Source of the DNA: Methanothermococcus sp. Ax23
Lineage (GTDB): Archaea; AGJL01; Methanococci; Methanococcales; Methanococcaceae
Direction of reading: 5' to 3'
NCBI RefSeq assembly: GCF_049075655.1
Contig: NZ_CP157522.1
Span: forward strand, 288,001 to 352,000
Length of the DNA: 64,000 nucleotides
In this document: positions 2,725 through 63,758 of the stretch, in pieces
Numbering within the stretch: the first letter of the stretch is position 1
Layout: the number at the start of each line of letters is the position of its first letter
Made by a program: the position numbers and the translations under genes
The notes under the pieces: generated by a model
What the model was told of the DNA's origin: nothing
The model's input: only the letters and a program-made list of their open reading frames with translations
Database searches by the model: none

Positions 2725-2856
2725 ATTCTCACCTTTTAATGTTATATTATAACATAACTTCTATATATTTTATTCGATATTGTCAATGTAGTATCGGAGC
2801 TCCTGGAACATAGTGATACCAGGAGAGGGTGAGCTCTGCATGATATATCATGAGAG

Positions 2857-3369
2857 TTATTCCACATACTCCCGGAGCTCCGACAACAACTCATACGCTC
2901 GGTTCAAATCTCCAACTTCAACAGCATGTTCCAACTCACTAAATAATATTTTCACAGAAGCAATGTTGTATAAATCATTATCAATAAACACTTCCTTAAA
3001 CTCATAAATCAACTCTTTTAATTGTTCTTTTTTCATGTTTATTATGTCATCCTTTACATAATCATATACTGTGGATTTTGGAATTCCGACCATCTCCGCA
3101 GTCTCTCTTATTGAATGCCCTTCTTTTATAAGGTTTAATAGTTCTCTCTTTTGAGTTTCATTTATTTTCTTTTTCCTTCCCTTTTGTTTAGATTTAACTT
3201 CAATAAATATTCCTGTGTTCTCTTTAAGAATTTGGATTTTATATGCCATTTTGGGATGGTTAAATACTGATTCTGGCATTCTTATAAATACCAAATCTTT
3301 ATTGGAATCTACAATGATTTTGTTTATTTCCTCCCAACTAACTATTTTATTAATGTCCTTTTCTATCAT
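2857..3369 (-). CDS. HTH protein (resolvase/terminase-like HTH), partner of adjacent recombinase; paralog of 24050-24583
   Basis: KGRKKKI...EGHSIRETAEMVGIPKSTVYDY; ATGA overlap with recombinase stop. Confidence 0.8.
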   Translation of the reverse strand: MIEKDINKIVSWEEINKIIVDSNKDLVFIRMPESVFNHPKMAYKIQILKENTGIFIEVKSKQKGRKKKINETQKRELLNLIKEGHSIRETAEMVGIPKSTVYDYVKDDIINMKKEQLKELIYEFKEVFIDNDLYNIASVKILFSELEHAVEVGDLNRAYELLSELREYVE

Positions 3370-3920
3370 CCTTCTCTCCTCAAAACATCCTCCGCTATTT
3401 TAGATTGAGTATATTTTAAAATCATGTCTATTTTTTTATGCCCTGTTATTGATGCCACAATTTGAGCAGGATATTGCTTTTTACCAAGGTATGAAATGTA
3501 GGAATACCTCAAAGAGTGTGTATTTATCCCTAAGTTTGTTAAATACCATGATGATGCATTGTTTGCAATCCGTTTAATGGTTTTATTTTCCCATTCCAAC
3601 ACCACATCTTTTGTCAGTTCAACATCTCTATTTGATATTTCCTTTGGAAGAATGAGTTTTCTCATTGCATTATCTTTCCTTTTTTCCACTTTAACAGATA
3701 CTTCATGTTCTTTTGATTTTGTAAATTTGATTAGTCCTTCAATCGCTTCCCCTATTCTGCAACCATTTCTCAATTGTATGAGTCCCAAAATCAAATAAGC
3801 ATATTTTTTCCTGTCGTTTTTATAAAGGGGTTTCTTGTTTCTCAACTGTTCCAGTTGTTGGATGAGTTTTTGTTTAGTTTCTTCATAATCCAATCCCATA
3901 TCCCAGTCATTTTCTCCCAT
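3366..3920 (-). CDS. Short tyrosine recombinase (catalytic domain only, 184 aa)
   Basis: Catalytic residues R (NGCRIGEA), K (VEKRK), HSLR, GH and Y (KYTQ) present; no N-terminal core-binding domain. Confidence 0.9.
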   Translation of the reverse strand: MGENDWDMGLDYEETKQKLIQQLEQLRNKKPLYKNDRKKYAYLILGLIQLRNGCRIGEAIEGLIKFTKSKEHEVSVKVEKRKDNAMRKLILPKEISNRDVELTKDVVLEWENKTIKRIANNASSWYLTNLGINTHSLRYSYISYLGKKQYPAQIVASITGHKKIDMILKYTQSKIAEDVLRREG

Positions 3921-4073
3921 GTTGATTACCTCTCATAATGTTAGAATGTCCGAAAAATACTAACTTAAAATAATAAAACTATCCTTTGATTAGTTTAATC
4001 GAATGTCTAAAAAAATAATCCATTCCAAAAATTTCCAACTAACAAACTATACATTTTGTTAGGTCGTATAGTT

Positions 4074-4328
4074 TCAACTAATCCCTAAGAGTTTTAGTTT
4101 TTCACGGAATTCTTTAATTGGGATTTCATAACGCCATTCTCCAAATACGACATACACCATTCTTTTTTTTCTATCGTGGCTAATCGGTATGCTCCGAATA
4201 TCATCCATCTCTTTAACATAGCCTCTTATATACGCTTCCTTATAATATCCGTTGTATGAATGATGCCTTTTTCTATCTCTCTTGTGTAATTTTTTAAAGC
4301 ATTTCCGTTTCATGTTGATCATGTTCAT
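4074..4328 (-). CDS. Basic hypothetical protein (element)
   Basis: 84-aa ORF overlapping upstream ORF. Confidence 0.5.
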   Translation of the reverse strand: MNMINMKRKCFKKLHKRDRKRHHSYNGYYKEAYIRGYVKEMDDIRSIPISHDRKKRMVYVVFGEWRYEIPIKEFREKLKLLGIS

Positions 4329-4509
4329 CCCTTTTTATCTTATAAACTGTCCCGTCTTCTTTAACTAAAATCACTTCTTTATAATTGCCCTCTATTTCTT
4401 CTGCGTCAATATTGAGAAAACAGTTTGCAGATATTAAAATTCCTTCAGTTGAGAACTTTATAGCATCTATTTTCTTAACATTGAATTCTTTTAAGTTGTT
4501 TTTGTCCAT
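4294..4509 (-). CDS. Hypothetical protein (likely start MDKNN at 4509)
   Basis: GTGA RBS-like motif before ATG 4509; upstream extension is AT-rich promoter-like sequence. Confidence 0.5.
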   Translation of the reverse strand: MDKNNLKEFNVKKIDAIKFSTEGILISANCFLNIDAEEIEGNYKEVILVKEDGTVYKIKRDEHDQHETEML

Positions 4510-4629
4510 AATATCACTAAAAGCCCATTTGATTAGTTTAATCGAGTAAATTAAGTTAGAGTATAATATGTTATTAAAAGAATATTGAATGCTGATGATA
4601 TATAGAGCAATTTCCAATAAGTGCTTTCT

Positions 4630-4896
4630 TCATTCCATTTCTTCTTCATCTTCCTCAATATCTTCATCATACCCCATCTCCTCCAAATATTTTCCATATT
4701 TCTTCAACATTTGCATCGTATATTCAACATCTTCTTTGAGTGCCTGCCACCGTGCCAGTGCATCCGTGTAATCTTTCCATGTTTCTTCATCAAGATCTGC
4801 ACCAAAAATTAAAAAACACTTTTCAATTTCATTATCGCTGCCATAAACCTTCTGGTATATATGCCCCATTGCGTTTATGATGTCATGGATATTCAT
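4630..4896 (-). CDS. Acidic hypothetical protein
   Basis: 88-aa ORF translationally coupled to upstream gene. Confidence 0.65.
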   Translation of the reverse strand: MNIHDIINAMGHIYQKVYGSDNEIEKCFLIFGADLDEETWKDYTDALARWQALKEDVEYTMQMLKKYGKYLEEMGYDEDIEEDEEEME

Positions 4897-5252
4897 TATT
4901 CCACCTTTCTGTTTTTAACAATGTCATTTATAAGTTCCAGGTCACTTAAGATTTCAAGACATTTTTCCTTAACTTCTTGCGAGTACGAAATGTGATATAT
5001 TTCTTTCAACCTCGTCCCTACTCGAACCATTAGCCTACTGTATAAGTTATCAACATCAATAACAGGTTCTTTTTTAGGCCTTCCTCTTTTGGGCTGTTCC
5101 ACAACATCCACACTTTCTCCATCAGGACTATCCGGAGCTCCTACGTGTTCATCATCATTCACAATTATGAGTTCATCTTCTTCACTTTCTTGGCTAGATT
5201 CTATTCCTCCAAATAGTTCTTCATCATCACTTATCATCATCAAAACCCCCAA
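4896..5252 (-). CDS. Acidic protein with AT-hook-like motif
   Basis: PKRGRPKK motif; operon position. Confidence 0.65.
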   Translation of the reverse strand: MGVLMMISDDEELFGGIESSQESEEDELIIVNDDEHVGAPDSPDGESVDVVEQPKRGRPKKEPVIDVDNLYSRLMVRVGTRLKEIYHISYSQEVKEKCLEILSDLELINDIVKNRKVE

Positions 5253-5988
5253 CGGTTTTTATAAAGTTGTCAAAACTAAATCCTAGTTCTACACCCGAAA
5301 ACTCTTTTGATTTATTTCCTTTTTTCCTATCGGTCTGCGTTTCTTTACCTTGATATGCCCTCATAGTAGGATTTAATTTAAGAGATGAATCAATAACTCT
5401 CGGTAATTCAACACCCAATTTTTCAAGTGCTGCCTTATACATTGCAGCTTCCTGCAATGCTATTTCATATAGCTGTCTTCTTCTAGGGTCTAATACTTCC
5501 AAAGGTTTTGCCTCTTCGGTGTAATTGTTTATTATCTCAAAACTATGTGCATAGATAGTAATTATTTCATCAGATAGATCAATACATCCAGCAGGAACAT
5601 GCACCACCCTATACTGTTCCTTTTTTCCAAAGATTAATGCTTTAAATGCTGAAATTATTTCTTCAATAAAATCAGGGCTTCGTCTCCTATACAATATAAT
5701 ATGAATATCATTTGGCCGTGGAATTAATGCAATGGGGTATCCATATATTTTTTCTCCATGTCCATTGTTCCAAATCAGTAACTTTTGTTTTACTTTATAG
5801 GGAGTTAGTGAAGCCATTGCAATTTTTTCATTTTCTATTTCCTCTTGCTTCTTTTTTATTAATTTCAAAGGATTTTTTGTTTTCCCATCAGATTTGTTAT
5901 ATTTAGGTTGTGACTTATTATCCCCATTTTCAGACAATTCTTCCTTTTCCCCCAATTCTTTTTCCTTAGATTTTTTAAATCCAAACAT
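5227..5988 (-). CDS. Hypothetical protein downstream of ATPase (putative core gene of element)
   Basis: 253-aa ORF with GGTGA RBS directly after ATPase. Confidence 0.75.
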   Translation of the reverse strand: MFGFKKSKEKELGEKEELSENGDNKSQPKYNKSDGKTKNPLKLIKKKQEEIENEKIAMASLTPYKVKQKLLIWNNGHGEKIYGYPIALIPRPNDIHIILYRRRSPDFIEEIISAFKALIFGKKEQYRVVHVPAGCIDLSDEIITIYAHSFEIINNYTEEAKPLEVLDPRRRQLYEIALQEAAMYKAALEKLGVELPRVIDSSLKLNPTMRAYQGKETQTDRKKGNKSKEFSGVELGFSFDNFIKTVGGFDDDK

Positions 5989-5996
5989 TATATCAC

Positions 5997-7337
5997 CTAC
6001 AACGATTGTGGATGCCTGTAAGCTATCCTTTCAACATATTGCTTATCGTATGCAAAATACCCCCTGAATTTATTTTTCTGTTTCATTTTTTGGTATTCGT
6101 CAATAGAAAATGATTCTTCCATTCCAATATCATCTTCATCAATTCCGGGAATCATTTTTTTCAACAGTTTTAAGTCTTCAGGACTTGCTATTTTTCCAAC
6201 AATTCCGATGTGTGTGCATCCCTCAATAAGGGATTTATTCAAACCTGCCATATATTGAGTAGCACCAATTAGATTGATACCCATGGACCTACCTTCCCTA
6301 TATATTTTATTAATTGCAGACAGGCCCACAGGATTATTGGCAAAGTGCTGTATCTCATCCACAAAGAAAAAAATAGGTATCTTTAACTTAAACGCAGATT
6401 TAACTGCCATATCTACAATCATTTTAAAAATAAGATTTTCTTCCTCTGTTGTAAGGTCTGAATTTTGGGAAAAATCAATCACATTTATCCGCTTGTTTGA
6501 AACATACTTAAAAAAACTCTCATCTTTTGAAAATAAAGGGTCTTTTTTCAATCTGTCCATAGTTTCTTCAATTCGTGAGTAAGTCCTGGAAGGTTTTTCT
6601 GGGTTATCCCATTCTAATGCTTTTTCCAATACTTTATCAGGGTCCCTAATTTTTTCAATATTCCAAATTTTCCTTAATCTTTCACCATGTAAAGCCCCAC
6701 TCCCAACATGAGTTAATTTCTCAATGAATGAAAAATCAATACTGCTGTATTTTATTTTCGCTTCAATTACTTCCGTTTTCCACCCATTATCTATTTTAAT
6801 ATTATTTAACCTCCTCCTTGGCCTGAATACAAAACGATTAACTGGGAATGCATAAGGAGACAATCCAAAATAACCTAATATTGTATTATTACCTGCCCAT
6901 TTCGTATATTTTCCCAATATATTAGGCATTCCCATTGCAAAATCTCCGGGGCTTCCGTATAAGTGAGGATATTTATTCATTAACTCCACATATTTTATGA
7001 TATAATCCCATGTATTTTTCCCATATTTTTTATACAGCATTTCTTTTGAATATTTTTGAGATTCCTTATAATATATTTCTTTGATTTTTTCTGCCTTTGA
7101 AACATCAATTTTCCTCTCAAACACAAAAATAATTGGAGCAATTCCTTTGTTAAGATATGCTGACCATATGGATTCAATTAGTGCCCTCATTACTGTTGTT
7201 TTTCCAAATCCTGAACCGCCCAAAAATAACATGTGATTTGCTTCCTCTGTTTTAAGGTCGAGTGTTCTTCTTGTTTTATTGCCTGTTGCTCTACCATATA
7301 ATGCATGACCTCTCCCAAGATATATTGGAACCTTCAT
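5997..7337 (-). CDS. HerA/FtsK/VirB4-like P-loop ATPase (start likely ATG 7337)
   Basis: Walker A GGSGFGKT, Walker B FFFVDE, REGRSMG..L..ATQ motif. Confidence 0.9.
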   Translation of the reverse strand: MKVPIYLGRGHALYGRATGNKTRRTLDLKTEEANHMLFLGGSGFGKTTVMRALIESIWSAYLNKGIAPIIFVFERKIDVSKAEKIKEIYYKESQKYSKEMLYKKYGKNTWDYIIKYVELMNKYPHLYGSPGDFAMGMPNILGKYTKWAGNNTILGYFGLSPYAFPVNRFVFRPRRRLNNIKIDNGWKTEVIEAKIKYSSIDFSFIEKLTHVGSGALHGERLRKIWNIEKIRDPDKVLEKALEWDNPEKPSRTYSRIEETMDRLKKDPLFSKDESFFKYVSNKRINVIDFSQNSDLTTEEENLIFKMIVDMAVKSAFKLKIPIFFFVDEIQHFANNPVGLSAINKIYREGRSMGINLIGATQYMAGLNKSLIEGCTHIGIVGKIASPEDLKLLKKMIPGIDEDDIGMEESFSIDEYQKMKQKNKFRGYFAYDKQYVERIAYRHPQSL

Positions 7338-7486
7338 AATCACCACCAAAATAGACCACTTGATAAATAGCAAACTTATCCAAAATAGTTATTATTTGTA
7401 AAAAATAGGCATGTGAGGTTATTTAATGAATAAAAAAATTATATAAATGCGTGTAGTAGTTAAAAAATAAAAACTAAAAAAAGTCT

Positions 7487-8101
7487 TCATACTGGATAGT
7501 CATACCTTTTTTTGTATCTTACAAATCCATATCCTATAACTATACATGCTAATCCACCAAATATAACTGCAGTTTTAAAATTAGAAACATCTTTCTTCCA
7601 TTCATTGTAAGCAGATATGTAATCTTCTTTTGTTTCATTTGATTGTTTGTTGATTAAATCAGTTATAATGTCTTTGTATTGTTCATTTTGTTGTTTAATG
7701 ATTTCATTTTCTGCTTTTAGTGTTGTAATTTGTTTTTGTAAATTTGTAATGTTTTTATTAAGTTCTATATTCTTCTTTTTGTAAGAAATATACTCTGCTA
7801 ACAATTTGTTTTTCTTATCTAGCTCGTTTTGTAATTTTGTCATGTTTTTTTGCAGCTCTGCTATCAATACATTATATGCCTTGACCATGTTGGCATCATA
7901 TACAATTACTGTTTTATTTCCCTCAATTTCCAACTTTTTAATGATTTGAACTGTTAAATTCTCTGGAAGATTCTCATCAGTATCATTAATCCAGAATACT
8001 TTTTGTTCCCCCGTCTGTGCATCTATTAATGTTATATTCTTTGCACTCACTCCTATGGGAACTGCCATTATTATCAGTATCAAAACTAATCGCTTTAACA
8101 C
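7487..8101 (-). CDS. Secreted coiled-coil protein with C-terminal TM anchor
   Basis: Signal peptide, heptad region (LQNELDKKNKLL...LQKQITTLKAEN), C-terminal TM and basic tail. Confidence 0.8.
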   Translation of the reverse strand: MLKRLVLILIIMAVPIGVSAKNITLIDAQTGEQKVFWINDTDENLPENLTVQIIKKLEIEGNKTVIVYDANMVKAYNVLIAELQKNMTKLQNELDKKNKLLAEYISYKKKNIELNKNITNLQKQITTLKAENEIIKQQNEQYKDIITDLINKQSNETKEDYISAYNEWKKDVSNFKTAVIFGGLACIVIGYGFVRYKKRYDYPV

Positions 8102-8113
8102 AATGCAATCACC

Positions 8114-8572
8114 TCAACCAAATAATCCTTGTATCTTACAATATCCACTCTGCCTATCTACTAAAACATACCCCATGAAATCGCCCTTAGTGTTCTTTCT
8201 ACCAAACAGCAATTTAAACTGCCAGTAATAATTTCCATCTTTGAATTCTTCAATGCTACCTGGGTCAACATCAAGATGATAATTATGCTCTTCCAACATC
8301 TTGTTGTAGTTGTCATCAAGATACTTCCGTGCCAAATTTAACGCCTGAACCCCACCGATTGAATACTTTTTTGGTGGAGTTGATAGAACCACAAAAGAGC
8401 CATCTGGATAACGAATTGTTTCATTCACAATAATGTATCCTGATGAAGGATAGCCAAACTCCAAAAGTTTTTCTTTAATAATATCATCATCGGATTGTTG
8501 GAAACTCATGACCGTGAAAGTAATTAAAAAAATAGCTAAAAAAGAAAAAAATAGAATTCTTAAAACTTTCAT
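8114..8572 (-). CDS. Membrane-anchored protein, possible PepSY-like C-terminal domain
   Basis: N-terminal TM; ALNLARKYL...YYWQF...VLVDRQSG pattern. Confidence 0.7.
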   Translation of the reverse strand: MKVLRILFFSFLAIFLITFTVMSFQQSDDDIIKEKLLEFGYPSSGYIIVNETIRYPDGSFVVLSTPPKKYSIGGVQALNLARKYLDDNYNKMLEEHNYHLDVDPGSIEEFKDGNYYWQFKLLFGRKNTKGDFMGYVLVDRQSGYCKIQGLFG

Positions 8573-8582
8573 ATTATCACTC

Positions 8583-9104
8583 TTACTGAGTGCTTATGTT
8601 AAGAACTTCTGAACCATTTTCTGGAACTCTGTATATCGTGTTGTTATATAACACAGTTGTATAGTAGTAGAGCTCGGTTGCAGTATCATTTGTAATTGGA
8701 ATGGTTGCGGTTGTTGGCAATGTAACATTAGTTGCAATGTATGACTCTGTGAATGTTGTATTATCATAGCTCGTAAATACTGCTATTTGTGATACCGATA
8801 TATTATCTTGTGAAGATGTTATTGAAACAAGAGAACTATTTGTTGAATTATCATAAATTGCAGCAATTGAGAAAGACAACTGATTTACAACTGTTAAATT
8901 ATCTGTTGTGTTTGTAGTTTGATTAATAGTTTCATTAAATGTTAAATTGTCTGCTGTTGTAGTGTTCGTAGTGCTGTTTTTTAGGAAGTCAAGGAGGAAA
9001 CCGCCGCCATCACTACTATGTGAGCTCATCCAGAACGCTCCAATACATGTTAATACTAATGCAATTACAAGCCCGATTGTTATATTACGCTCCATATAGA
9101 CCAC
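8583..9104 (-). CDS. Membrane-anchored Thr/Asn-rich protein
   Basis: N-terminal TM; many N-x-S/T sequons. Confidence 0.7.
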   Translation of the reverse strand: MVYMERNITIGLVIALVLTCIGAFWMSSHSSDGGGFLLDFLKNSTTNTTTADNLTFNETINQTTNTTDNLTVVNQLSFSIAAIYDNSTNSSLVSITSSQDNISVSQIAVFTSYDNTTFTESYIATNVTLPTTATIPITNDTATELYYYTTVLYNNTIYRVPENGSEVLNISTQ

Positions 9105-9351
9105 CTACAATAGATTTAATGCTTTCAATTATTCCATTAAGGTCAAGAACTCCAAAATATGAGAGTGCAGCAGCTACAATTATAACGCATACTAACACCC
9201 ATAAACTCCTGAGGATTATTGCCCCAATCGTAAAAAATGCAACTGCAACTATCCACCATTGCAAAAAGATACCTGAAAAAATCCCCAATAAGAAAAATAA
9301 AATTGCATGATTTTCCTTCTCATTTTCAAGTTTTTCAAGAAAACTCTTCAA
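9085..9351 (-). CDS. Small multi-TM protein
   Basis: Hydrophobic 88-aa ORF in operon. Confidence 0.7.
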   Translation of the reverse strand: MKSFLEKLENEKENHAILFFLLGIFSGIFLQWWIVAVAFFTIGAIILRSLWVLVCVIIVAAALSYFGVLDLNGIIESIKSIVGGLYGA

Positions 9352-9355
9352 CTTA

Positions 9356-9493
9356 TCACCCCTTCTTTTTGGATTTTTTGGATTTTCTCTTTTTCAGCAT
9401 TTCAGACCTATCCGCTTCAATCACATTTCCATTTTTATCCACATAATAGAATTTTCCTTTCTTTTTCTGTATTTTTCCAACTGTTCTTGCCAT
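9356..9493 (-). CDS. 45-aa highly basic protein with CC1-like motif (not in ORF track)
   Basis: Hand translation MARTVGKIQKKKGKFYYVDKNGNVIEADRSEMLKKRKSKKSKKKG; GGTGA RBS; fills the operon gap exactly. Confidence 0.8.
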   Translation of the reverse strand: MARTVGKIQKKKGKFYYVDKNGNVIEADRSEMLKKRKSKKSKKKG

Positions 9494-9497
9494 AATA

Positions 9498-9773
9498 TCA
9501 CCCAGTAATATTTGTAGAATTAATAGTTTCATTAATGGTTGAATTTATAAGAGACAATGGAAAACCACCTGAGCTCAGATGGATGTGTGAAAGTATCAAG
9601 TCTTTGAGTGAGCTCAGGTCATACCCTTGATGAGCCAATACAATTACTACAATCACACCGATTAGAATTATTTGCCAATTCTTGATGACCCATGCAACCC
9701 CTAATACAATTAACAATTCCAACCAGTGCGACTGAATAAAACTCATAATTGTTGCAGTATCTATTGCCATCAA
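9498..9773 (-). CDS. Small membrane protein
   Basis: Two hydrophobic segments; operon. Confidence 0.7.
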   Translation of the reverse strand: MMAIDTATIMSFIQSHWLELLIVLGVAWVIKNWQIILIGVIVVIVLAHQGYDLSSLKDLILSHIHLSSGGFPLSLINSTINETINSTNITG

Positions 9774-10093
9774 TCATCACCTTTAACAAGATAACCTATT
9801 ATGACCCCAACACCCAGTCCCAGCATGAGTTTAGAAACTTCTAAAATTATCCTGCCTATATCTTGTGTATAATACAGCATTACTAAAATAGAGAGAACAA
9901 TTACTGCAACTGCATCTCCAAGATTCCAGTCTCTTCCTACGAGTTTCCATACACTCAATAAAATTAAGAGTGTAGGAACAGCCCATGCCAAAATTCCACT
10001 GAAACCTAAACTATTTCCTATAATCTCCAACTTGCTCTGCATCACATAACAGAGCATAAAAGTAATTATTGTTGATATAATCTGTTGAATCAC
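9770..10093 (-). CDS. Small multi-TM protein
   Basis: 3-4 hydrophobic segments; overlaps next gene. Confidence 0.7.
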   Translation of the reverse strand: MIQQIISTIITFMLCYVMQSKLEIIGNSLGFSGILAWAVPTLLILLSVWKLVGRDWNLGDAVAVIVLSILVMLYYTQDIGRIILEVSKLMLGLGVGVIIGYLVKGDD

Positions 10094-10106
10094 ATCGAAT
10101 CACCTA

Positions 10107-10589
10107 TTATTGAGTTAATCCAGGGATTGTTGGGATTAATGTCAAGTATTTTGCTACTGTTGCAATCGTAGCTCCTAACCACATATACAATATAATCTCA
10201 TCATCCCCCGTCTCTGGGGCAAGTATGTATAGAGCAAGAAGCCCTGCCACAACTAAAACAGCTGGACTCATTGAACCCACATTAAGAGTCATGGTTCCTG
10301 CCAATGCCCATAATATTCCAAAGAAGCCAAGCAGAGCTCCTGCAAATACTAAGGCATATCCTGTTGCTCCACTACTCTGTTGATATAATGATGTCAAAAC
10401 ATCCTTCATATCTACGAATTTATCAATACCTTCAACAAGGAGAATTACCAGCAAAGGGACGCTTGCAAATGTTGTGATAATATCATTGAATGCTACTGAA
10501 TGCTGTCCAGCATACCAGAATATTGCTCCAGCACCAAGAGATGTGGCTATCATTTTCACTACCCACATGTTCCAATTAGTTTTTGCCAT
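10107..10589 (-). CDS. Multi-TM membrane protein (about 5 TM)
   Basis: Strong GGAGGTG RBS; very hydrophobic. Confidence 0.8.
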   Translation of the reverse strand: MAKTNWNMWVVKMIATSLGAGAIFWYAGQHSVAFNDIITTFASVPLLVILLVEGIDKFVDMKDVLTSLYQQSSGATGYALVFAGALLGFFGILWALAGTMTLNVGSMSPAVLVVAGLLALYILAPETGDDEIILYMWLGATIATVAKYLTLIPTIPGLTQ

Positions 10590-10634
10590 AAAAACACCTC
10601 CAATATAAGTTAAAAAAGAATTTAAAAAAGTAAT

Positions 10635-12623
10635 TTAGAAGAGTTTAAGCACAATCACGGCTCCACCGACAATTACAATAACTACAACAAGGATTAAAAC
10701 CCAATCTGGAATATTTCCAATTCCAAAGCCCTCTTTAAATGACTGCCATGAATCTCCGAGCCATGAACCGGCAGTGAAAAACATGCTCGGTTCATATTGT
10801 TTTGTTAATTCTTCGAGTTTCTGTGCATTTTCTATATCTGCTAATGCCTGTTCACTCTGACCATAAAACTCTTTCTGTGCTGCATCGCTGTAATAATCCC
10901 CAATCATTTCATAGTTTTTACTTAGTTTGTATGATGTTGCAATTTGTGCTGCATCATTTGTAGATTTTAATTTACTAAGTTGCTCAATTGCTTTTTCATA
11001 ATAAGTTGATGCTTTATCAGCATAGGATGCTGCTGTTTGTCTATTGTATGTTTTACATTTCTGTGAAAATGATATTGCACTGTTTTTCTTCTCAGTGAGT
11101 GATGTAATTGACGAATCTACAAGGTTCTTCAATGTCTGAATTTCATTATCTGTAATTTTTGAGTCATTAATTATCTCAAGAATTTCATTTGTTTGAGTAT
11201 CTCCTAAAACCACTTCTTGATTACTTAGTACGCTGACTTGCGGTTTAATTATACACCATAATGGCAAATCATTTACGGTTGCATAGACTAGTGCATATGA
11301 ATCAAAACTCACTGTATTATTGTCTGTTTTATAATATAGTGAAGATGCTGCCAAATTAATATTTGAAAGGTCTCCAAATTTTACAGGCGATTGTGATGAA
11401 ATATATGATGTATTATCTTTTTGAATCCTAAATGCAGCCATTTTAAAATCATCACTAATTGTTGCTGGAATTGGTTTAAAATTATCAGGGAGACCTATGA
11501 ATACATACTTATAATCAGCTGTGGAATCGAATAAATGAACGGGTGTAGCCCATACTCTTCCAATGATATTTGATGTTGCTCCATTAGCCCATGCTGCATA
11601 TGCAGTATAATTCCTGTCAAATGCAAACTTTGCTGGAAGACTGCCTGTTGTTCCCCTAATATAATATTTACCATTGTTAATATGTTTCCACGCACTCAAA
11701 GATTTGTATTGTGCATTAATCGGAATGTCATCAATATGCCTTTTTTCTTTTGATATGTATGTCGACCCATCAGGGTTTGTTTTTGTTATTTCTACCCAAG
11801 CCCACACTTCCCTATATCCTTCCACTTCAACACACACTTCAAACTTATTTACTTTTGCATTCAGGAGTTCCTCAAGTGTTTTTCTATCTGCTGTGCCTGT
11901 TGCCATTGCTTTTGCTTTTCCATAATAAGGGTCTGGCGTTTTAAGTAAGAAATTCCATGTATAATCACTATTTCTTAGTATTTGGTCACCAGTCCAAGTC
12001 TGCTTCCACCAAGTCTGCCCAGTCTCTATGTCTTTAACATATGTCGTTATTTTCTGAATATGAACCTTATTTTCACTTGGGTCTGGTGCTGCTGGTGCGT
12101 ATATATTAATTACAGTTGGAAACGCTGAAAAACCATATATCTTACCTGCACCTTTTAAACTCAAACGAATATCTGCCAATGAACCACTTGACTCAAAATC
12201 ATATGTTGTTAATGAACTTGCAACATCTTGACGTAGAATAAATAAATCTTGTGCCGCTTTTTCATTTGAAAAGCCCCTAATCTCCGCTAATTTATTTATC
12301 ACATCTTCATCTTTCATGTCGGATGTTGTAGGCGTTTTTCCATCAGTAACTGCTGCACCATCATTACTGTTTTTTCCTGTGAGCTCCCTATAAATGTAGT
12401 TCGCAGCAATACCTCCACCTATTGCTACACCTGCGACAACAAGTGCGGGAACTTCAACAGGTGCAAGAACTATTGCTGCACCAGCAACTGCTGCACCTAC
12501 CGCAAGTGATGCAACATCTCCTGTATCAACATTTACTTCATGCCCGAACAGCTCAAAAGCATGAGCAGGTGCGATGATATACATGAGAATTAAAAAAATA
12601 GAAGAAAGTTTTTCAAACTTCAA
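10635..12623 (-). CDS. Large surface protein: signal peptide, Gly/Ala-rich hydrophobic hairpin, beta-rich core, helical bundle, C-terminal TM (t26-6p-like)
   Basis: TTG start 12623 after GGTGA; APAHA|FE cleavage-like site; C-terminal WVLILVVVIVIVGGAVIVL. Confidence 0.8.
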   Translation of the reverse strand: MKFEKLSSIFLILMYIIAPAHAFELFGHEVNVDTGDVASLAVGAAVAGAAIVLAPVEVPALVVAGVAIGGGIAANYIYRELTGKNSNDGAAVTDGKTPTTSDMKDEDVINKLAEIRGFSNEKAAQDLFILRQDVASSLTTYDFESSGSLADIRLSLKGAGKIYGFSAFPTVINIYAPAAPDPSENKVHIQKITTYVKDIETGQTWWKQTWTGDQILRNSDYTWNFLLKTPDPYYGKAKAMATGTADRKTLEELLNAKVNKFEVCVEVEGYREVWAWVEITKTNPDGSTYISKEKRHIDDIPINAQYKSLSAWKHINNGKYYIRGTTGSLPAKFAFDRNYTAYAAWANGATSNIIGRVWATPVHLFDSTADYKYVFIGLPDNFKPIPATISDDFKMAAFRIQKDNTSYISSQSPVKFGDLSNINLAASSLYYKTDNNTVSFDSYALVYATVNDLPLWCIIKPQVSVLSNQEVVLGDTQTNEILEIINDSKITDNEIQTLKNLVDSSITSLTEKKNSAISFSQKCKTYNRQTAASYADKASTYYEKAIEQLSKLKSTNDAAQIATSYKLSKNYEMIGDYYSDAAQKEFYGQSEQALADIENAQKLEELTKQYEPSMFFTAGSWLGDSWQSFKEGFGIGNIPDWVLILVVVIVIVGGAVIVLKLF

Positions 12624-12624
12624 T

Positions 12625-14703
12625 TTAATCACCTCTTCGGATGAGGTATGCTCCAACTCCTCCAACTAAAAGAATAGCTCCTGCAACCAATGCCCATAAT
12701 GGAATTCCTGAACTTCCCCCAATTGGAATGAATGAACTTTCAACAATCTTCAATACTACCTTATCACTGAATACTGGTTCTGCTTCGTCCTTCTCGAATA
12801 CCTGAACCTGCAACTCGTATGAATCGAATTCTAAATCACTTGGAACTTCAAACTTAACTTCCAACTCTTTTGTTTCCATTGGAGCCACTGCTATTGATGC
12901 TGTTGGGGTTTCATTGCCAAATATTGAAGCAATTAATTTTGCATCATAGTATTTTACTTCATTAGTTGGGTTTTTTATTTCCAATTTTACTGTTGCTACG
13001 CTGCCCTTACTTCCTTCGACTTCCGGGGTTAAGAGTTTGATAGGTTGCAATACACTAATTGGAATGTATGTGATTATTGCTCCGTTCTTTGCTGAAATTT
13101 CAAGAACATAATTATTTGGTGCAGGAATAGGGATTGTGAATGATTGGCTATCGTAAGCGTTAAATGCTGCACTTTGTGACCAGATTTCTGTGTTGTTAGT
13201 ATCTCTTAGCACCATTAATATTGAATAGTCCTCTCCTGACTGTTCTGTAATTGATAACTGATTATCTCCTATACTCCATGATGGTTGTTGGATGATAAAT
13301 GGCAATTCTTCAACTTCATAGATTATTGTTTTCTGTGTTGTGTATTCATTTCCTAAAATATCAGTTCCTACAACCCTCACAGTATATTGATGTTCTCCAA
13401 CACTCGCAGATGTTTTAAATGTTATTTTAACTTGTGCTTCTTCATTTTCTTTCCCATCACCTAAAATATATGAACCATCTGCACTTTTAGGAACATTAAC
13501 TCCATCTTTTTCAACTTTTACAATTTCACCACCAGTTATGTATAATTTAGTCCCGTATGCATCCCTAACAGGAGTTAATTTCAATATAACATCTGCAACT
13601 GAATTTGGCGAGGTTGTAATCTCTGCTGGAGTTTGGGTTATTTTAAAGATTGATGTTTTTGGAAATAGGTATACAGTTATGTTTTTGTCCCCATCCACAA
13701 CTATCTCTTTTTCTTCTTCCCAATATCCTTCTTTTTCAAAATTCAAAGTATATTCTCCATAAGGCATATTTGTAGTCCATTCTCCATCAATTGTTGTTGT
13801 TAAGTTTCCTGAAACACCTATATCTGAAAGAGACTCTCCTGAAAGTCCATCTACAATTTTAAATGTTATTGCACCATACTCAAAATTGACAGTGTTATTT
13901 CCATCAGCAGTTACTTCTACTGTTTTCTCGATTGTAATTCCATTAGTGAATACTACCTCCACAGAGTATGTTCCATCAGGTTTTTCAATAATTAATTTTC
14001 CTTCACTATCTGTTGTTCCTACCAAATCTCCATCAACATATACCTGAGCTCCGGGTTCTGCATATATTGTCAAATCATGATATGACCTAAAATGATACAC
14101 ATTATAACAAATCCCTGAATAAGAATCCAATAACAATTTTACAGTCCCAGGAACTAACAACACAGCATTGGTGAAATGACCAGAATATGCCGATGCACGT
14201 ACGGAAAAATTACCTTCTGATAAAAGAACTGAGCTGACAACTAAAGAATCACTACCTCGACTATATTTGCAGATATCGTTCTGAATAATTTGAACATAGT
14301 CACTATCTGCCCAATCAGTCCCTACTCCTATATACGACGTCCCCTCACCTGCACCACTGAAAAAATACTCATCAGCAGAACTGTCACACTGAATTATTGA
14401 AACCAAAGAATACTCATTAGAAAGTACCAACTCATTAGGATTAAACAAAAAGTTATAAGGATTCGCACGAATTTTAACAGGCATTAGGAACCTTGCCATA
14501 TCTTTCTCAGATGCAAAATATATTGTATTCCCTTCAACTCTTGTTATCTGCGGAGTGAATATGTCCCAAGATGCTGAATCCAGCTTTGACTGAATTTCAT
14601 CTTGACTGTATCCATCAACAACTACAAAATATTCCTCAGCACTAACTGCTGAAACAAAACATAATGCAAAAACTGAAAGCAATAGAAGAATTAACTTCCT
14701 CAT
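12625..14703 (-). CDS. Large surface protein with PEGA/Ig-like beta-sandwich domains and C-terminal TM (t26-5p-like)
   Basis: Signal peptide MRKLILLLL...VSA; PGAQVYVDG..VGTT PEGA-like motif; TM followed by IRR tail. Confidence 0.85.
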   Translation of the reverse strand: MRKLILLLLSVFALCFVSAVSAEEYFVVVDGYSQDEIQSKLDSASWDIFTPQITRVEGNTIYFASEKDMARFLMPVKIRANPYNFLFNPNELVLSNEYSLVSIIQCDSSADEYFFSGAGEGTSYIGVGTDWADSDYVQIIQNDICKYSRGSDSLVVSSVLLSEGNFSVRASAYSGHFTNAVLLVPGTVKLLLDSYSGICYNVYHFRSYHDLTIYAEPGAQVYVDGDLVGTTDSEGKLIIEKPDGTYSVEVVFTNGITIEKTVEVTADGNNTVNFEYGAITFKIVDGLSGESLSDIGVSGNLTTTIDGEWTTNMPYGEYTLNFEKEGYWEEEKEIVVDGDKNITVYLFPKTSIFKITQTPAEITTSPNSVADVILKLTPVRDAYGTKLYITGGEIVKVEKDGVNVPKSADGSYILGDGKENEEAQVKITFKTSASVGEHQYTVRVVGTDILGNEYTTQKTIIYEVEELPFIIQQPSWSIGDNQLSITEQSGEDYSILMVLRDTNNTEIWSQSAAFNAYDSQSFTIPIPAPNNYVLEISAKNGAIITYIPISVLQPIKLLTPEVEGSKGSVATVKLEIKNPTNEVKYYDAKLIASIFGNETPTASIAVAPMETKELEVKFEVPSDLEFDSYELQVQVFEKDEAEPVFSDKVVLKIVESSFIPIGGSSGIPLWALVAGAILLVGGVGAYLIRRGD

Positions 14704-14704
14704 T

Positions 14705-15028
14705 TTAATCACCTAAAACAGTATTAAGAGCAATCTCTAATATTTTATAATCTTTCCAACGATTATGCTCTCTTTTTAACTTAATAATCGTGTTAAAAAA
14801 CTGCTCTTTTTGCTCATCTGTTAATTGTAATTCTTTTGCTATTTTCCCGCCCGCAACCTTTAAACCTTGAATGTTCGAGCATTTTGCATTTTTATAAACA
14901 TTACTCGCAAGAAGAACACTGCATTTTGCATTTTCCACATCAACTTTAACTGCCTTCACTTCCCCCGCTAAATAATCCCTATCAAAACAGACGACAGGAT
15001 GAAGACAATGAGGACATATGGCAATCAT
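14705..15028 (-). CDS. Cys-containing small protein, first gene of the membrane operon
   Basis: CPHC motif; GAGGTG RBS. Confidence 0.7.
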   Translation of the reverse strand: MIAICPHCLHPVVCFDRDYLAGEVKAVKVDVENAKCSVLLASNVYKNAKCSNIQGLKVAGGKIAKELQLTDEQKEQFFNTIIKLKREHNRWKDYKILEIALNTVLGD

Positions 15029-15423
15029 AATAACACCTCAATAGATTTATGAAAATAAATATTCAAAAAATAGCGATACTAATGACTACCTTAAAAGCCA
15101 CCTCTTCACCGATAGATACTATCTCAGAGGAGGGAGGGGGCATAAAATAGATTTGGTAAAAATTATAGAAAAACTACTATATAAATATATTCATATATTG
15201 CAATTTAACCATAATTTTTATGGTTAGAACACCATAAAAATAAAAAAATATAGGCATACAGTCCAACACATAAGAACAAAATAAGGAACAAAAGAACAAT
15301 AGCAAAACATATTACAAATACTCTAAAAACACACTGAACCAGCAAAAATATAAAATAAATAACACAACACCATCAAAAATAAGAAATAAACGCCGATTAA
15401 AGACACATTTTTAAAACTTTTGC

Positions 15424-15478
15424 ACTTAAGATCCAGTCCCATAGGGGTTCGGGGGTTCAAATCCCCTCCCCTGCACCA
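15424..15478 (+). repeat. att site: 3' part of tRNA-Leu(TAA) from anticodon loop to CCA
   Basis: ACTTAAGATCCAGTCCCATAGGGGTTCGGGGGTTCAAATCCCCTCCCCTGCACCA has anticodon loop, variable arm, T arm and CCA; no D arm or 5' acceptor strand upstream. Confidence 0.9.
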
Positions 15479-56990: not shown

Positions 56991-57049
56991 ACACCCTCTT
57001 ATTTTTAATTTTTCTTTTTCTTATTTTTATTTTTTTAATTATTATTTAA

Positions 57050-58026
57050 TAGTATGGGTCAAAATATATAAACTATACTAAATATAACATTATAAAAAAG
57101 ACGATATTATGAGGGCTGAGGAAGTAGTAAATGAGATAATTACATCAGATTTAATTGACCAAATCCCTAAACGAAGAAAGGTAGGGAGGAAAGGATATAA
57201 TTTAGAGTTGAGGCTTAAACTATTAGTGTATGCCTTTTTAAAAGGCATACACTCAAATAGAGCGTTAGTATTACACTTACAAAATAATCCACAGATTTTA
57301 ACTGCATTAGGATTTAAATCCTGCCCTGGTAGAAGAACCATCGATAGATGGAAAAAATCCCTAGATGAAGAATTGCATGCAATAATTACTTTATTAGGTG
57401 ATAAATATATTGAACTGAATAATCCTGAATGGTCAATATACGATAGCACCCCAATCAAAGACGAACAAGATGAGGATGGAAAGATAGGATATAACAGTGA
57501 AGGAATGTTTAAAGGCTTCAAATTACATTTAGCAGTGGATAAAAAGGGGATACCATTAAGAGCAGAATTTACCACAGCAAATACTCATGATTGTAAAGTG
57601 GCTGATAAATTATTAGTATGCACTAAGAAATCCTGTGCAGATGCGGGTTATGATTCAAAAGATTTAAAAAAATTTCACAAATCCTTTGGATTTGCTTATT
57701 TCCTCGCTATCGCTCGGAAAAGCCATGGAATTATACCAAAACGAACTAATAACTGCCCACAATCCAAGAAGATTAGGTAAGAAAAATAAAAAGAAACTTC
57801 CGAAGGAAATTTCTAAGATAAGAGTTAAAATAGAACATACCAATTCGATATTAAAGAACAGATTTATGAATAAGTTTTGGATTAACATTAAAGGCTATAT
57901 CCGTAAAAAAGTATTCTGTCTCTGTGCAGTGGCTTCTGCACAGGTTTTAGCGTTATATAATCTCATTACCAGAGGTTACCCTTATATGAAAGTCTTAGAG
58001 GTTAGGGTGTAATATGACCCACACTA
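57050..58026 (+). mobile_element. DDE insertion sequence (IS5/IS982-like), 977 bp
   Basis: 12-bp TIRs TAGTRTGGGTCA; 11-bp target duplication TTATTATTTAA at 57039-57049 and 58027-58037. Confidence 0.88.
57109..58012 (+). pseudogene. DDE transposase frameshifted by an insertion of about 46 bp
   Basis: DST, GFKLHLAVD and ADAGYD in one frame, RVKIE in another; frames rejoin if 57673-57718 is removed. Confidence 0.85.
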
Positions 58027-61140: not shown

Positions 61141-61250
61141 CTAAAATTTTAATATAAATTAATTACAATTATAATGGTTAATATAATGACAATATTATTA
61201 TTTTACTTAAACTATAAAATATTATATAAAAAATAAAAAGGCGATGGATA

Positions 61251-62219
61251 ATGGATAAAGATTTAAGACCTATAATATGGGATGATGAAAATAACCAGTT
61301 AATATTGATTGACCAAAGAAAACTCCCAAATAGTTTGGAATACTTCACATGCAAAGATTACAATGATGTGGCATTTGCTATAAAAGATATGGTTGTAAGG
61401 GGAGCTCCTGCAATAGGAGTATCCGCGGCATACGGTATGGCACTTGCTGAATTAAATGATGATAATATAGAAAAAGCATATGAACAGTTAAAAAACACAC
61501 GACCAACTGCTGTAAATTTATTTTGGGCTTTGGATAGATGTATTAATGCATATAAAAGCAATAAATCAATATTGGACGAAGCAAAAAAGATTCACGAAGA
61601 AGATATTGAAGTATGTAGGAAAATAGGACAGATTGGGGAAAAAATTATCGATGATGGAGATACCATTCTAACCCATTGCAATGCAGGAGCTCTTGCCACT
61701 TCGGCATATGGAACAGCTTTAAGTGTAATTAGGTTTGCACACTACAACAACAAAAAAATCAATGTCATAGCAGATGAAACAAGACCAAGACTTCAAGGTG
61801 CAAAATTAACGGCATTTGAGCTTAACTATGAAGGTATTCCAGTTAAAGTAATTTCCGACAACACGGCGGGCTTTTTAATGAAAAAGGGAATGATTGATAA
61901 AATCATAGTTGGAGCAGATAGAGTTTTAAAAGATTACACAGTATTTAATAAAATAGGAACATATTCCCTTGCCGTTCTTGCAAAATACCACAACATACCT
62001 TTTTATGTGGCGGCTCCTTATTCAACATTTGATTTTAAAAACGATTTAGAGGATATTGTAATTGAAGAGAGGGATGAAAAGGAGGTTATATATATCGACG
62101 GCGTTAGAATAATTCCAGAAGGAGTTTCAGCATATAACTATGCCTTTGATAGCACACCGCCGGAGTTGATTGCAGGCATAATTACTGAGAAGGGGATAAT
62201 TTACCCCAATGAGAAATAA
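61251..62219 (+). CDS. mtnA: Methylthioribose-1-phosphate isomerase
   Basis: DQRKLP, VRGAPAIG, RPTAVNL, THCNAG, ETRP..QG. Confidence 0.93.
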   Translation: MDKDLRPIIWDDENNQLILIDQRKLPNSLEYFTCKDYNDVAFAIKDMVVRGAPAIGVSAAYGMALAELNDDNIEKAYEQLKNTRPTAVNLFWALDRCINAYKSNKSILDEAKKIHEEDIEVCRKIGQIGEKIIDDGDTILTHCNAGALATSAYGTALSVIRFAHYNNKKINVIADETRPRLQGAKLTAFELNYEGIPVKVISDNTAGFLMKKGMIDKIIVGADRVLKDYTVFNKIGTYSLAVLAKYHNIPFYVAAPYSTFDFKNDLEDIVIEERDEKEVIYIDGVRIIPEGVSAYNYAFDSTPPELIAGIITEKGIIYPNEK

Positions 62220-62441
62220 ATGATAAAATGAAAGTTAAAGAATAATATAAAAAACAATATCATAAATATAATTATAAAATTAACGAAAAATTATTTATAA
62301 TGCAAATTACTTTTAAGTTATGGCTAATTGTCATTTTGTAAATATTAAATTAAATATAACTATAAATCAATTATTTAATTTTATAGATATCATTATAATC
62401 AAAAATAAAAATAATACATTAAAAAATAAAAGGATGATAAT

Positions 62442-63758
62442 ATGTATGTATTGGGCGATTGGAGAAGAACGCACTTTTCAAATGAGATAACACCTGAAAT
62501 GGATGGAGAAGAAATTATCGTTATGGGATGGACCCATTCCATAAGAAAATTGGGAAAATTGGTATTTATCATATTGAGAGATAGAGAAGGAACAGTCCAA
62601 ATAGTAGTTCCTAAGCAGAAGGTATCAGAAGAAGTATTTACAACGGCAAAATCCGTAGGAAGAGAGGATGTTCTCGCTGTAAAGGGAAAAGTTGTGGCAA
62701 ATGAAAAGGCACCAGCGGGATATGAGGTAATACCTATTGAAATTAGAATATTGAACAAGGCAGATACTCCGCTTCCATTAGACCCATCAGAGAAGGTTCC
62801 TGCGGATATTGATACAAGATTGGACAAAAGATTTTTGGATTTAAGAAGACCAAAAATACAGGCATTATTTAAATTAAGGTCTGAAATGTTCAAATCAGTA
62901 AGAGATACATTTTATGACAATGGATTTATTGAGGTAAATACTCCAAAGCTTGTGGCAAGTGCAACAGAGGGAGGAACAGAATTATTCCCTATATCCTACT
63001 TTGAGAAAGAGGCATTTTTAGGTCAAAGTCCGCAGTTATACAAGCAGATGATGATGGCAGCAGGATTTGACAGAGTGTTTGAAATTGGTCCTATATTCAG
63101 GGCAGAGGAACACAACACAAGAAGACACTTAAACGAAGCTATATCAATTGACTGTGAAATGTCATTCTCAGATGAAAAGGATGCAATGAATGTTCTTGAA
63201 AAGATAGTCCATAATGTGTTTGCTGACTTGTATGAAAATAACCAGAAGGAGCTCCAAACATTAGGCATAAATTTGACTGTTCAAGAAACACCATTCCCAA
63301 GATTATCCTACACAGAAGCAGTTGATATTGTAAATTCAAAAGGAATAGAAATGGAATGGGGCGAAGACTTTTCAAGAGCTGCTGAAAAAGCGCTTGGAGA
63401 CTCCATGGAAGGATTCTATTTCATCACAGACTGGCCAACTGAAACAAGACCATTCTACACCCTTCCAAACCAGGAAGACCCTAAACTCTGTAAGGCATTT
63501 GACTTAATGTATAAGGATTTGGAGATTTCATCCGGAGCTCAGAGGAACCACAAATACGACTTACTTGTTGAAGGCATAAAAAGAATGGGACTCAACCCAG
63601 AAGGCTTTGGAACCTACTTAGAGGCATTTAAATACGGTATGCCACCGCATGCAGGTTGGGGATTAGGTGCAGAAAGATTTATGATGATAATCACCTGCCA
63701 AGAAAACATTAGAGAGTGTGTCTTATTCCCAAGAGACAGGCAGAGATTGACCCCATAA
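62442..63758 (+). CDS. aspS: Aspartyl-tRNA synthetase (probably non-discriminating)
   Basis: [31 protein letters not shown]. Confidence 0.97.

Follow-up and report, generated by a model that had tools for sequence, protein, structure and literature searches.

Why should a single six-base palindrome be so frequent in the DNA of a methanogenic archaeon? The question is raised by a stretch of 64,000 nucleotides from the chromosome of Methanothermococcus sp. Ax23 (contig NZ_CP157522.1, positions 288,001 to 352,000 of the forward strand), which is referred to here as the window and corresponds to G000:C1:288001-352000, G000 being the genome of the window. The hexamer GAGCTC occurs 89 times in it, from position 2797 to position 63540, compared with 4.32 ± 2.04 copies in 100 dinucleotide-preserving shuffles (maximum 10), none of which reached 89; 17 of the 89 sites read GGAGCTCC. 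A first-pass annotation, made from the letters of the window alone, had counted about 88 sites where about 4 were expected and had compared GAGCTC with HIP1, the highly iterated palindrome (HIP) of cyanobacteria. Both figures agree with ours, and the ten positions that it quoted are all present in our list. The analysis described below shows that GAGCTC is maintained by a continuing directional force acting on the exact palindrome at the DNA level, and that this force depends neither on coding or codon usage nor on a cognate methyltransferase that could be recognised.

The abundance is a property of the whole genome (1,662,948 + 7,732 bases, 31.9% GC). The G000 chromosome contains 2085 GAGCTC sites (1.25 per kb), compared with 124, 106 and 160 expected under zero-order, first-order and second-order models, respectively, and the enrichment of the 6-mer is 16.8-fold, the same value as in the relative G010. 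Among all hexamers GAGCTC ranks first by its observed/expected ratio at every Markov order tried, and it also has the top z-score under the maximal-order model (ratio 1.60, z = 30.7), which already includes the motif-inflated pentamers. The second of the 64 palindromic hexamers is CCATGG with a 2.64-fold enrichment, and no second GC-rich hexamer of comparable enrichment was found in the hexamer counts of G000. The genome-wide ranking proposed by the first-pass annotation therefore places GAGCTC first, and its concern that other GC-rich hexamers might be equally enriched is not borne out, the other palindromic hexamers being at most 2.64-fold enriched.

The preference is strict. The final base is decisive, as the chromosome contains 2085 GAGCTC but only 175 GAGCTA, 155 GAGCTG and 163 GAGCTT. 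Moreover, the one-mismatch variants of the word, taken together, are mildly depleted rather than enriched (1947 observed, 3107 expected). Relative to its one-mismatch neighbours, the motif is about 27 times as frequent as composition predicts. Expressed as ln 27, this amounts to an advantage of about 3.3 in scaled units at each site, which is weak per site, yet enough to occupy most of the low-cost synonymous opportunities. Many other palindromes are extremely depleted in the same chromosome (GATC 0.03, GTAC 0.07, ACGT 0.10, CGCG and GCGC 0.13, CTAG 0.14), and every palindromic hexamer of the forms GTNNAC and CTNNAG is found at 0.03-0.14 of expectation.

Distribution of the palindrome among relatives

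The survey of relatives comprised 38 genomes of the group, each at least 80% complete, and whole-genome GAGCTC counts were obtained for 31. Five of these carry the word in large numbers, namely G000 (2089 sites), G012 (2070; a complete genome), G010 (1645), G013 (1515) and G003 (1321; 90% complete), and the same five alone stand out by 8-mer count among the 38 genomes. The remaining 26 contain 4-229 sites: 21 are near expectation (43-229) and five are depleted (G007, 4; G008, 9; G005, 14; G002, 16; G015, 26). The host-specific, HIP1-like pattern, thinner in mobile DNA, that had been noticed in the window is therefore found throughout the genome and also in four relatives. In G010, 1259 of the 1645 sites read GGAGCTCC, a 571-fold enrichment, and 215 read GGGAGCTCCC.

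The core tetramer AGCT is avoided in G002, G005, G007, G008 and G015, and its depletion in congeners is 10-20-fold. The first 800 kb of G005 contain 283 AGCT compared with 2608 expected, and the observed and expected counts in samples of other genomes are 2 and 42 (G008), 3 and 56 (G007), and 6 and 57 (G002). On a tree of the relatives built from one protein, IlvB, the carriers do not form one clade. G013 groups with genus g3, its sister on this tree, whose genomes contain 97-100 GAGCTC sites, and genus g1 shows an unresolved three-way split between G010, the group of G000, G012 and G003, and the depleted clade. At least two changes of motif state are forced by the well-supported branches of this single-protein tree.

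No other palindromic hexamer above about 4-fold was found in the whole of G010 or in the 800 kb of G005. As candidates for alternative motifs in other genomes, a 22-fold enriched GGGATGG in G007 and G017 was rejected because it derives from CRISPR repeats, and GGCC (3-5-fold in G002, G007 and G008) and CAGCTG (4-5-fold in f2 samples) rest on small counts. The CRISPR arrays that mimic GGGATGG lie at L033:11170-14340 in G007 (46 repeats, period about 67) and at L029:1560-2530 in G017 (14 repeats, about 74 bases). In G005:C1:1-800000, purine-rich words are strongly enriched (GAGGAG 10-fold, GGAGGAGG 38-fold), and in a 20-kb sample of this genome they lie mostly on one strand (43 forward, 8 reverse); they are a phenomenon distinct from the palindrome. 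G005 also contains, at G005:C1:46254-48234 (L117:6254-8234), a pair resembling a restriction-modification (R-M) system, in which a 254-aa N6_N4 methylase is overlapped by a 415-aa protein without Pfam match. This pair was considered as a candidate AGCT-directed system and was set aside: intact copies of the 415-aa protein were found in G005 and G021 only, those of G002, G004 and G015 being fragmentary, and any link with AGCT is hypothetical.

Independence from coding and turnover of the sites

The simplest account of a frequent hexamer in a gene-dense genome would be that it is a by-product of protein sequence or of codon, codon-pair or translational preferences, and the fact that 53% of the sites encode Glu-Leu (E-L) in frame 0 speaks in its favour. 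We analyzed this possibility using a gene model of the 1651 longest open reading frames (ORFs) of G000, a heuristic set made independently of any annotation, in which 87% of the sequence is coding. Coding DNA contains 1962-1963 sites compared with 120 expected (about 16-fold), and non-coding DNA contains 123 sites compared with 6.8 expected (about 18-fold). All three reading frames are used (1106, 631 and 226 sites in frames 0, 1 and 2, respectively), in agreement with the frame-independent and intergenic occurrence noted earlier in the window. When synonymous codons were permuted inside each gene, which keeps the protein and the per-gene codon usage (the latter already inflated by the motif), 60 shuffles yielded 193 ± 12 coding sites, with a maximum of 224, whereas 1963 are observed; the loss of the enrichment with amino acids and codon usage preserved, which the first-pass annotation had considered fatal to its proposal, is thus not observed. 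Although CTC represents only 6.7% of the Leu codons, GAG-CTC encodes 1106 of the 3985 Glu-Leu pairs (27.8%), and codon usage predicts 68. Dicodon bias cannot explain the sites in frames 1 and 2 or those in non-coding DNA, and a dicodon-preserving null would itself carry the frame-0 signal.

The same conclusion is reached by comparing orthologous alignments. The motif occupies 944 of 2949 E-L pairs (32%) in G000 and 531 of 2941 in G010, but 2 of 1177 at the aligned positions of G005. For [G/R]-A-[L/P/H/Q/R] the corresponding values are 526 of 696 (76%), 436 of 764 and 1 of 296, and for S-S they are 168 of 1149 in G000 and 177 of 1225 in G010. Where E-L pairs are aligned between orthologs, G005 uses the motif in 1 of 769. 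The amino acids themselves are not less conserved when they are encoded by the motif (67%, compared with 62% for other E-L pairs, towards G010; 56% compared with 53% towards G005), and therefore the word mostly exploits synonymous freedom. The dipeptides E-L, S-S and G-A are 16-20% commoner in G000 than at aligned G005 positions, which is only a hint, since the two genomes differ in composition. Taken together, the frame, shuffle and G005 evidence already refutes a by-product of coding, and we regard that explanation as next to impossible.

The surroundings of the sites are nearly uninformative beyond two bases. A weak symmetric preference for G at -1 (35-38%), C at -2 (27-30%) and T at -5 is common to the non-coding sites and to the sites in each frame, and suggests a consensus close to CGGAGCTCCG. 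Because the flanks carry almost no information, the GAGCTC sites are not copies of a dispersed repeat.

The maintenance of the sites was analyzed by aligning 102 kb of G000 and G012 (86% identity). In this alignment 130 sites are shared, 33 are found only in G000 and 24 only in G012. Motif windows, defined by the presence of the word in at least one of the two species, are identical in 130 of 187 cases (69.5%). The value is 21.2% (2982 of 14090) among the remaining hexamers of four G/C and 42.8% among hexamers in general (chi-square P = 2e-56). At conserved E-L pairs GAGCTC is unchanged in 65 of 80 cases (81%), GAATTA in 36 of 60 (60%) and one-mismatch pairs in 0-25%; moreover, 7 of the 16 one-mismatch E-L pairs are GAGCTC in the other species. 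When motif windows differ, they tend to differ at several bases at once, with 27 of 57 (47%) differing at three or more of the six bases, compared with 8.8% in controls (P = 3e-14); within E-L pairs such differences amount to 9 of 24 compared with 3 of 63 (P = 3e-4). These differences do not reach beyond the word itself: the identity of the flanks is 0.84 at three-mismatch sites and 0.86 at shared sites, and local recombination tracts as the source of the clustered changes find no support in these values. The idea that new sites are born with extended flanks was likewise dropped, as species-specific and shared sites have equal flank composition. The clustered changes can represent either a fast crossing of intermediates that were never fixed or retained multi-base mutations; both fit.

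G010 was used as an outgroup for these comparisons, and contains the motif at 39 of 112 shared sites, at 4 of 27 G000-only sites and at 4 of 22 G012-only sites. Since G010 rarely has the motif at species-specific sites, most such sites look like gains. At conserved E-L pairs between G000 and G010 the motif is present in both genomes at 215, only in G000 at 425, only in G010 at 112 and in neither at 1144 (odds ratio 5.2), so that part of the site set is old or context-dependent and most of it has turned over. These data bear on the possibility that GAGCTC is the relic of a process that no longer acts, or that its sites were copied from a small dispersed repeat. Some of the sites are indeed old, 34% of the E-L sites of G000 being common to the distant G010. 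However, a relic would not be expected to keep an identity of 69.5% where other words of the same G/C content keep 21%, nor to show mostly gains among the species-specific sites, and the copies of a repeat should have left more informative flanks. We therefore consider this explanation very improbable.

Placement along the chromosome and in mobile DNA

The first-pass annotation had suggested, among other roles, a chromosome-organising motif, which finds no support in the placement of the sites. Counts in bins of 1 to 50 kb are even and Poisson-like in G000 (variance/mean 0.88-1.21), and nearest-neighbour distances are indistinguishable from random (Kolmogorov-Smirnov P = 0.42). No periodicity was detected between 3 and 300 kb by a method other than that of the HIP1 paper, the top spectral peak being equalled by 37% of 500 randomisations. 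Inside genes of at least 600 bases the sites are evenly spread except for a thinner first tenth (113 sites, compared with 161-197 in the other tenths), which may be an artefact of start calls in the longest-ORF model. The non-coding sites show no preference for gene starts or gene ends.

The density of sites does differ between parts of the genome. Genes of G000 with a G010 ortholog carry 1.52 sites per kb and genes without a G010 match 0.78 per kb. The small plasmid C2 is enriched (4 GAGCTC in 7.7 kb). No site was found in the three copies of the TnpB insertion sequence (IS; 4.4 kb) and the eight copies of the DDE IS (7.5 kb), 11.9 kb in all, the copies being about 88% alike. Two of the TnpB copies lie outside the window, at G000:C1:199570-201007 and 1308517-1309834. 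A paralogous TnpB copy of G000 has 88% protein identity to one in G010, well above the genome median of 75%, and no TnpB copy was found in G005, of which 53% of the genome was covered in the TnpB, gene-content and near-identity comparisons. The longest stretches free of GAGCTC are found at G000:C1:113847-124945 (11.1 kb), 1342926-1355392 (12.5 kb, with one site) and 1198428-1203719 (5.3 kb, where a type III Mod/Res pair lies). Their sequence is rich in AT (26-28% GC), and they are probably recently acquired islands.

The window reproduces this arrangement. Its chromosomal part (15701-64000) contains 78 sites (1.61 per kb, close to the earlier estimate of about 1.6) and includes housekeeping genes for AdoMet synthetase, ThiDN, IlvB-like, PurF-like, TruD and ELP3-like proteins. 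Positions 1-15700 contain 11 sites (0.70 per kb). Within them, the ORF block of an integrated pT26-2-like element (2857-15028), with all ORFs on the minus strand, contains 9 sites (0.74 per kb, compared with about 0.65 estimated earlier), which is about half the chromosomal density and still about ten times chance. This element was recognised by its T26-6p domains, of Ig-like and helical type, and by a HerA/FtsK-like ATPase; neither an integrase nor a flanking tRNA was recognised at 2857-15028, the sole tRNA of the window being tRNA-Ser at 23348-23435. As had been claimed, GAGCTC is absent both from the TnpB element (48300-49900; OrfB_IS605/Cas12f-like TnpB gene at 48417-49781, plus strand) and from the DDE IS (57000-58020; transposase IS at 57109-58012, plus strand). 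The three sites described as intergenic all lie between ORFs: 23160-23165 between the Nre gene (21902-23143) and tRNA-Ser, 24806-24811 between the ORFs at 24050-24583 and 24838-25452, and 32063-32068 between those at 31008-31895 and 32090-33460. A single radical-SAM gene (25454-26677) contains four sites, starting at 25516, 25600, 25634 and 25801 and thus spanning 25516-25806. Additionally, 14 of 17 listed public sequencing runs contain the window stretch or part of it, and 10 contain at least half of its sampled words.

Methyltransferases, a possible reader and known systems

A methyltransferase is the partner that the comparison with HIP1 leads one to expect, and eight Pfam families were searched for it. 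Six DNA methyltransferases were found in G000. One is M1, a 300-aa N6_N4 enzyme that is closest, among solved relatives, to N4-cytosine enzymes; the others are a type III Mod, a type I HsdM, two type IIG enzymes and an Eco57I-like enzyme. No C5 methylase (PF00145) was found in G000, and neither were members of the MT-A70, Dam and EcoRI-methylase families, although the MT-A70 control matched nowhere. None of the six enzymes has an ortholog in G010, where the best match of M1 reaches 26%. M1 has a 92% ortholog only in G003, together with relatives of 74-77% in five f2 genomes without enrichment, and M6 has an ortholog only in G003. G012, which is as motif-rich as G000, has a type IIG enzyme on a plasmid in addition to two type I HsdM, and lacks DNA methylases of the N6_N4 and C5 families. 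The single DNA methylase of G010 adjoins an RE_MjaI-family nuclease, a family name that points to a CTAG-type system. RE_SacI matched none of the 31 genomes, and likewise none of 14 control genomes.

Mismatch repair gave a similar picture. MutS was found in none of 19 genomes of f1, the family of the window, and NucS was not detected in any of the five carriers, its only matches in f1 being those in G017 and, weakly, in G008. By these two Pfam families, f1 genomes would therefore be without both known mismatch-repair routes, and a model of methyl-directed mismatch repair has no known parts here, because neither protein was found in the carriers. Co-distribution of MutS or NucS with the motif was also considered, and there is none. 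As no DNA methylase family or ortholog is common to G000, G012 and G010, the enrichment does not appear to travel with a methylase or with known mismatch repair, as judged by sequence families. The methyltransferase link proposed in the first-pass annotation, including the search for a co-distributed enzyme, thus came out negative for these three genomes.

It is nevertheless conceivable, along the lines suggested for cyanobacterial HIPs, that a GAGCTC or AGCT methyltransferase marks the word and that mark-dependent repair converts near-cognate sites or protects cognate ones, which would require an enzyme of an unrecognised family or one carried by some strains only. A strict six-base palindromic specificity is the behaviour of type II enzymes, and the 10-20-fold depletion of AGCT in congeners suggests that AGCT-directed enzymes circulate in the gene pool. 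G010 avoids GATC, ACGT and other words even though only one R-M system was recognised there, which means that such a signature may persist after the genes of a genome have gone, or have its source outside them. The enrichment of plasmid C2 and of the integrated element is what an in-cell process predicts, and the alternate HIPs of cyanobacteria accompany matching methylases in the available text of PMC4390886. On the other side stand the search results given above: G000 without a PF00145 enzyme and with six methylases that lack G010 orthologs, M1 and M6 with close orthologs only in G003 among the carriers, the limited enzyme sets of G012 and G010, and the failure to find RE_SacI (with a silent control), MutS or NucS in the carriers. 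Moreover, the deamination (C-to-T) neighbour GAGTTC/GAACTC is not depleted (0.88 of expectation), and single-base correction would leave unexplained the 47% of changes that involve three or more bases. We consider this explanation unlikely.

GAGCTC may also, as was suggested for HIP1 on the basis of its periodicity, be the site of an abundant nucleoid or chromosome-organising protein, selected for DNA compaction, protection or domain structure. The roughly 2000 sites lie evenly over the chromosome, are conserved above background and have a dyad symmetry that suits a dimeric binder, with weak symmetric flanks in non-coding DNA and in every frame. However, the spacing tests revealed neither periodicity nor regularity, congeners do without the word or avoid its core, and no binder is known; furthermore, all-or-none recognition of this strictness is unusual for nucleoid proteins. 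This explanation appears to us clearly improbable.

The reading that we prefer, tentatively and at somewhat less than an even chance, is that GAGCTC is a HIP-like word under directional force, that it is recognised by a strict dimeric reader, and that it serves as a self tag in DNA exchange or recombination through a transmission bias. The dyad symmetry of the word, and the fact that its one-off variants are not enriched, point to a putative homodimeric DNA reader resembling a restriction enzyme. The word would then act much as uptake signals or Chi sites do. An allele containing it would have a better chance of being taken up, packaged, recombined or spared from degradation, and would spread by molecular drive. 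Lineages with a common tag would exchange DNA preferentially, and sister lineages without the tag would be under AGCT-directed restriction pressure. The even placement of the sites, their halved density in accessory DNA, their absence from the IS copies and the dialect of G010 fit such an exchange drive. The more specific proposal, that GAGCTC or GGAGCTCC would be the first self-recognition word in archaea, spread by transmission bias and read, with no methylation involved, by a hypothetical dimeric protein that acts in DNA import, packaging or end processing, seems to us doubtful.

An excess of near-identical alleles between G000 and G010 also fits this reading. Of 1240 proteins compared between these two genomes, 69 have an identity of at least 90% and 11 of at least 95%, compared with 10 and 0 of 641 between G000 and the covered part of G005, and one G000 protein is 92% identical to that of G010 but 88-89% identical to those of the nearer G012 and G003. 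Blocks of G000 with 90-93% DNA identity to G010, over a background of about 76%, are located at G000:C1:1028791-1030402, 1078985-1083565, 1370618-1374467 and 1516534-1520821, and their motif density is normal to high. Together with the protein that is closer to G010, these blocks suggest recent gene flow between two motif-bearing lineages. An uptake-signal or Chi-like role, with natural transformation, is proposed for HIP1 in the abstracts of 10.1101/2024.09.10.611283 and PMC13756078.

Several observations weigh against the proposed role in exchange. A partial gene-content screen revealed neither a reader protein nor any machinery for uptake or packaging that is tied to the motif: 1352 of the 1651 ORFs of G000 have a G010 homolog, and 22 of these are absent at the syntenic place in the covered part of G005. 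The 18 candidates that were read by eye are presumably transporters, a kinase, a signal peptidase, PheRS alpha, TnpB fragments and a winged helix-turn-helix (wHTH) regulator, and none of these 18 looked like a sequence-specific DNA enzyme; the screen covers about half of a single negative genome, so that a co-distributed gene may have escaped it. GAGCTC is a six-base palindrome with mildly depleted one-off variants, unlike the known uptake signals, which are asymmetric, 9-12 bases long and accompanied by enriched one-off variants. Genus g3, which is motif-poor, is taken here to contain Methanococcus maripaludis. This species is naturally transformable according to the available text of PMC10133366. 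If both hold, competence in the order does not require the word. GAGCTC sites were also considered as the ends of transferred blocks, and rejected, as the ends of the G000/G010 blocks lie 24-870 bases from the nearest site. The enriched plasmid C2 and integrated element are more simply explained by an in-cell process, and the near-identical alleles of G000 and G010 could reflect closer kinship or a common habitat. Finally, the sharing of sites between G000 and G010 exceeds independence, and part of the set is therefore old inheritance or reflects local context.

Among known systems HIP1 is the closest. According to the available text of PMC4390886 and PMC5861425, HIP1 is the cyanobacterial palindrome GCGATCGC, 15-300-fold abundant, which accompanies the methylases DmtA and DmtC and whose one-off variants are enriched and conserved; in the same text neither archaea nor GAGCTC is mentioned. 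GAGCTC resembles HIP1 in being a hyperabundant GC-rich palindrome (17-fold as a 6-mer, 571-fold as an 8-mer in G010) with about one site per kb, distributed over all frames and non-coding DNA, conserved between genomes above control words, for which codon preference is no explanation, and which has extended or variant forms in some lineages and is absent from some relatives. It differs in its archaeal host, in its six-base core, in having no detectable cognate methyltransferase where HIP1 has DmtA and DmtC, in one-off variants that are neither enriched nor conserved, in the lack of the 10-90 kb periodicity of HIP1-type distributions, and in the strong avoidance of AGCT by close relatives of its carriers. 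Hence, of the features of HIPs, hyperabundance, frame independence and conservation beyond controls are present, and a cognate methylase, enriched one-off variants and periodicity were not found. Our literature search, which did not extend to supplements or REBASE, found no report of this abundance of GAGCTC or GGAGCTCC, nor of archaeal HIPs.

The other comparisons are more partial. The uptake signals of Pasteurellaceae (USS) and Neisseriaceae (DUS) are asymmetric, 9-12 bases long, often paired in terminators and tolerant of one-off variants, and they are tied to known competence machinery and, in the case of DUS, to a receptor. GAGCTC shares with them a density of about one per kb, an even spread, a location in genes in all frames mostly at synonymous cost, a lower density in mobile and accessory DNA, lineage dialects and the possibility of an explanation by weak per-site transmission bias, and differs from them in being short and symmetric, with near-matches that are not enriched. 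Chi sites, read by RecBCD or AddAB, are likewise short, over-represented and taxon-specific, and mark self DNA for the recombination machinery. They are, however, asymmetric, replication-oriented and only few-fold enriched, whereas GAGCTC has no replication orientation because it is its own reverse complement; we know of no archaeal equivalent of Chi. Sequence-specific repair enzymes can also raise the frequency of their recognition words, as in Dcm/Vsr very-short-patch repair at CCWGG in E. coli; the Mig glycosylase is encoded beside a GGCC methylase on a plasmid of a thermophilic methanogen. The effect of such systems is less than 2-fold, they need a C5 methylase, and their deamination neighbour is depleted, unlike that of GAGCTC. 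Restriction-site avoidance concerns the same class of words (GAGCTC is the SacI site and its core the AluI site) and has the same lineage-by-lineage patchiness, but its sign is opposite in the five carrier genomes. From genome sequences, then, GAGCTC can be described as an archaeal highly iterated palindrome without a detectable methylase, with AGCT avoidance in congeners as its mirror image.

Hyperabundant palindromes have been an unsolved problem since HIP1, and discussion has revolved around the methylases by which it is recognised. An independent case in another domain, with no detectable cognate methylase, separates the enrichment from methylation. The contrast among congeners is clean, with words that are on, off or avoided (about 2000 sites compared with 4-16), and natural controls are on offer in the form of carriers, non-carriers and a carrier with an eight-base dialect. 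In practical terms, SacI and AluI-type enzymes will shred the DNA of carrier species, the word may matter for genetic tools and for the transformation of thermophilic methanogens, and GAGCTC density is a sensitive marker of foreign DNA in carrier genomes. If the self-recognition reading is true, the word would define exchange groups among thermophilic methanogens, and these archaea would offer a methylase-free natural system in which to solve what highly iterated palindromes do.

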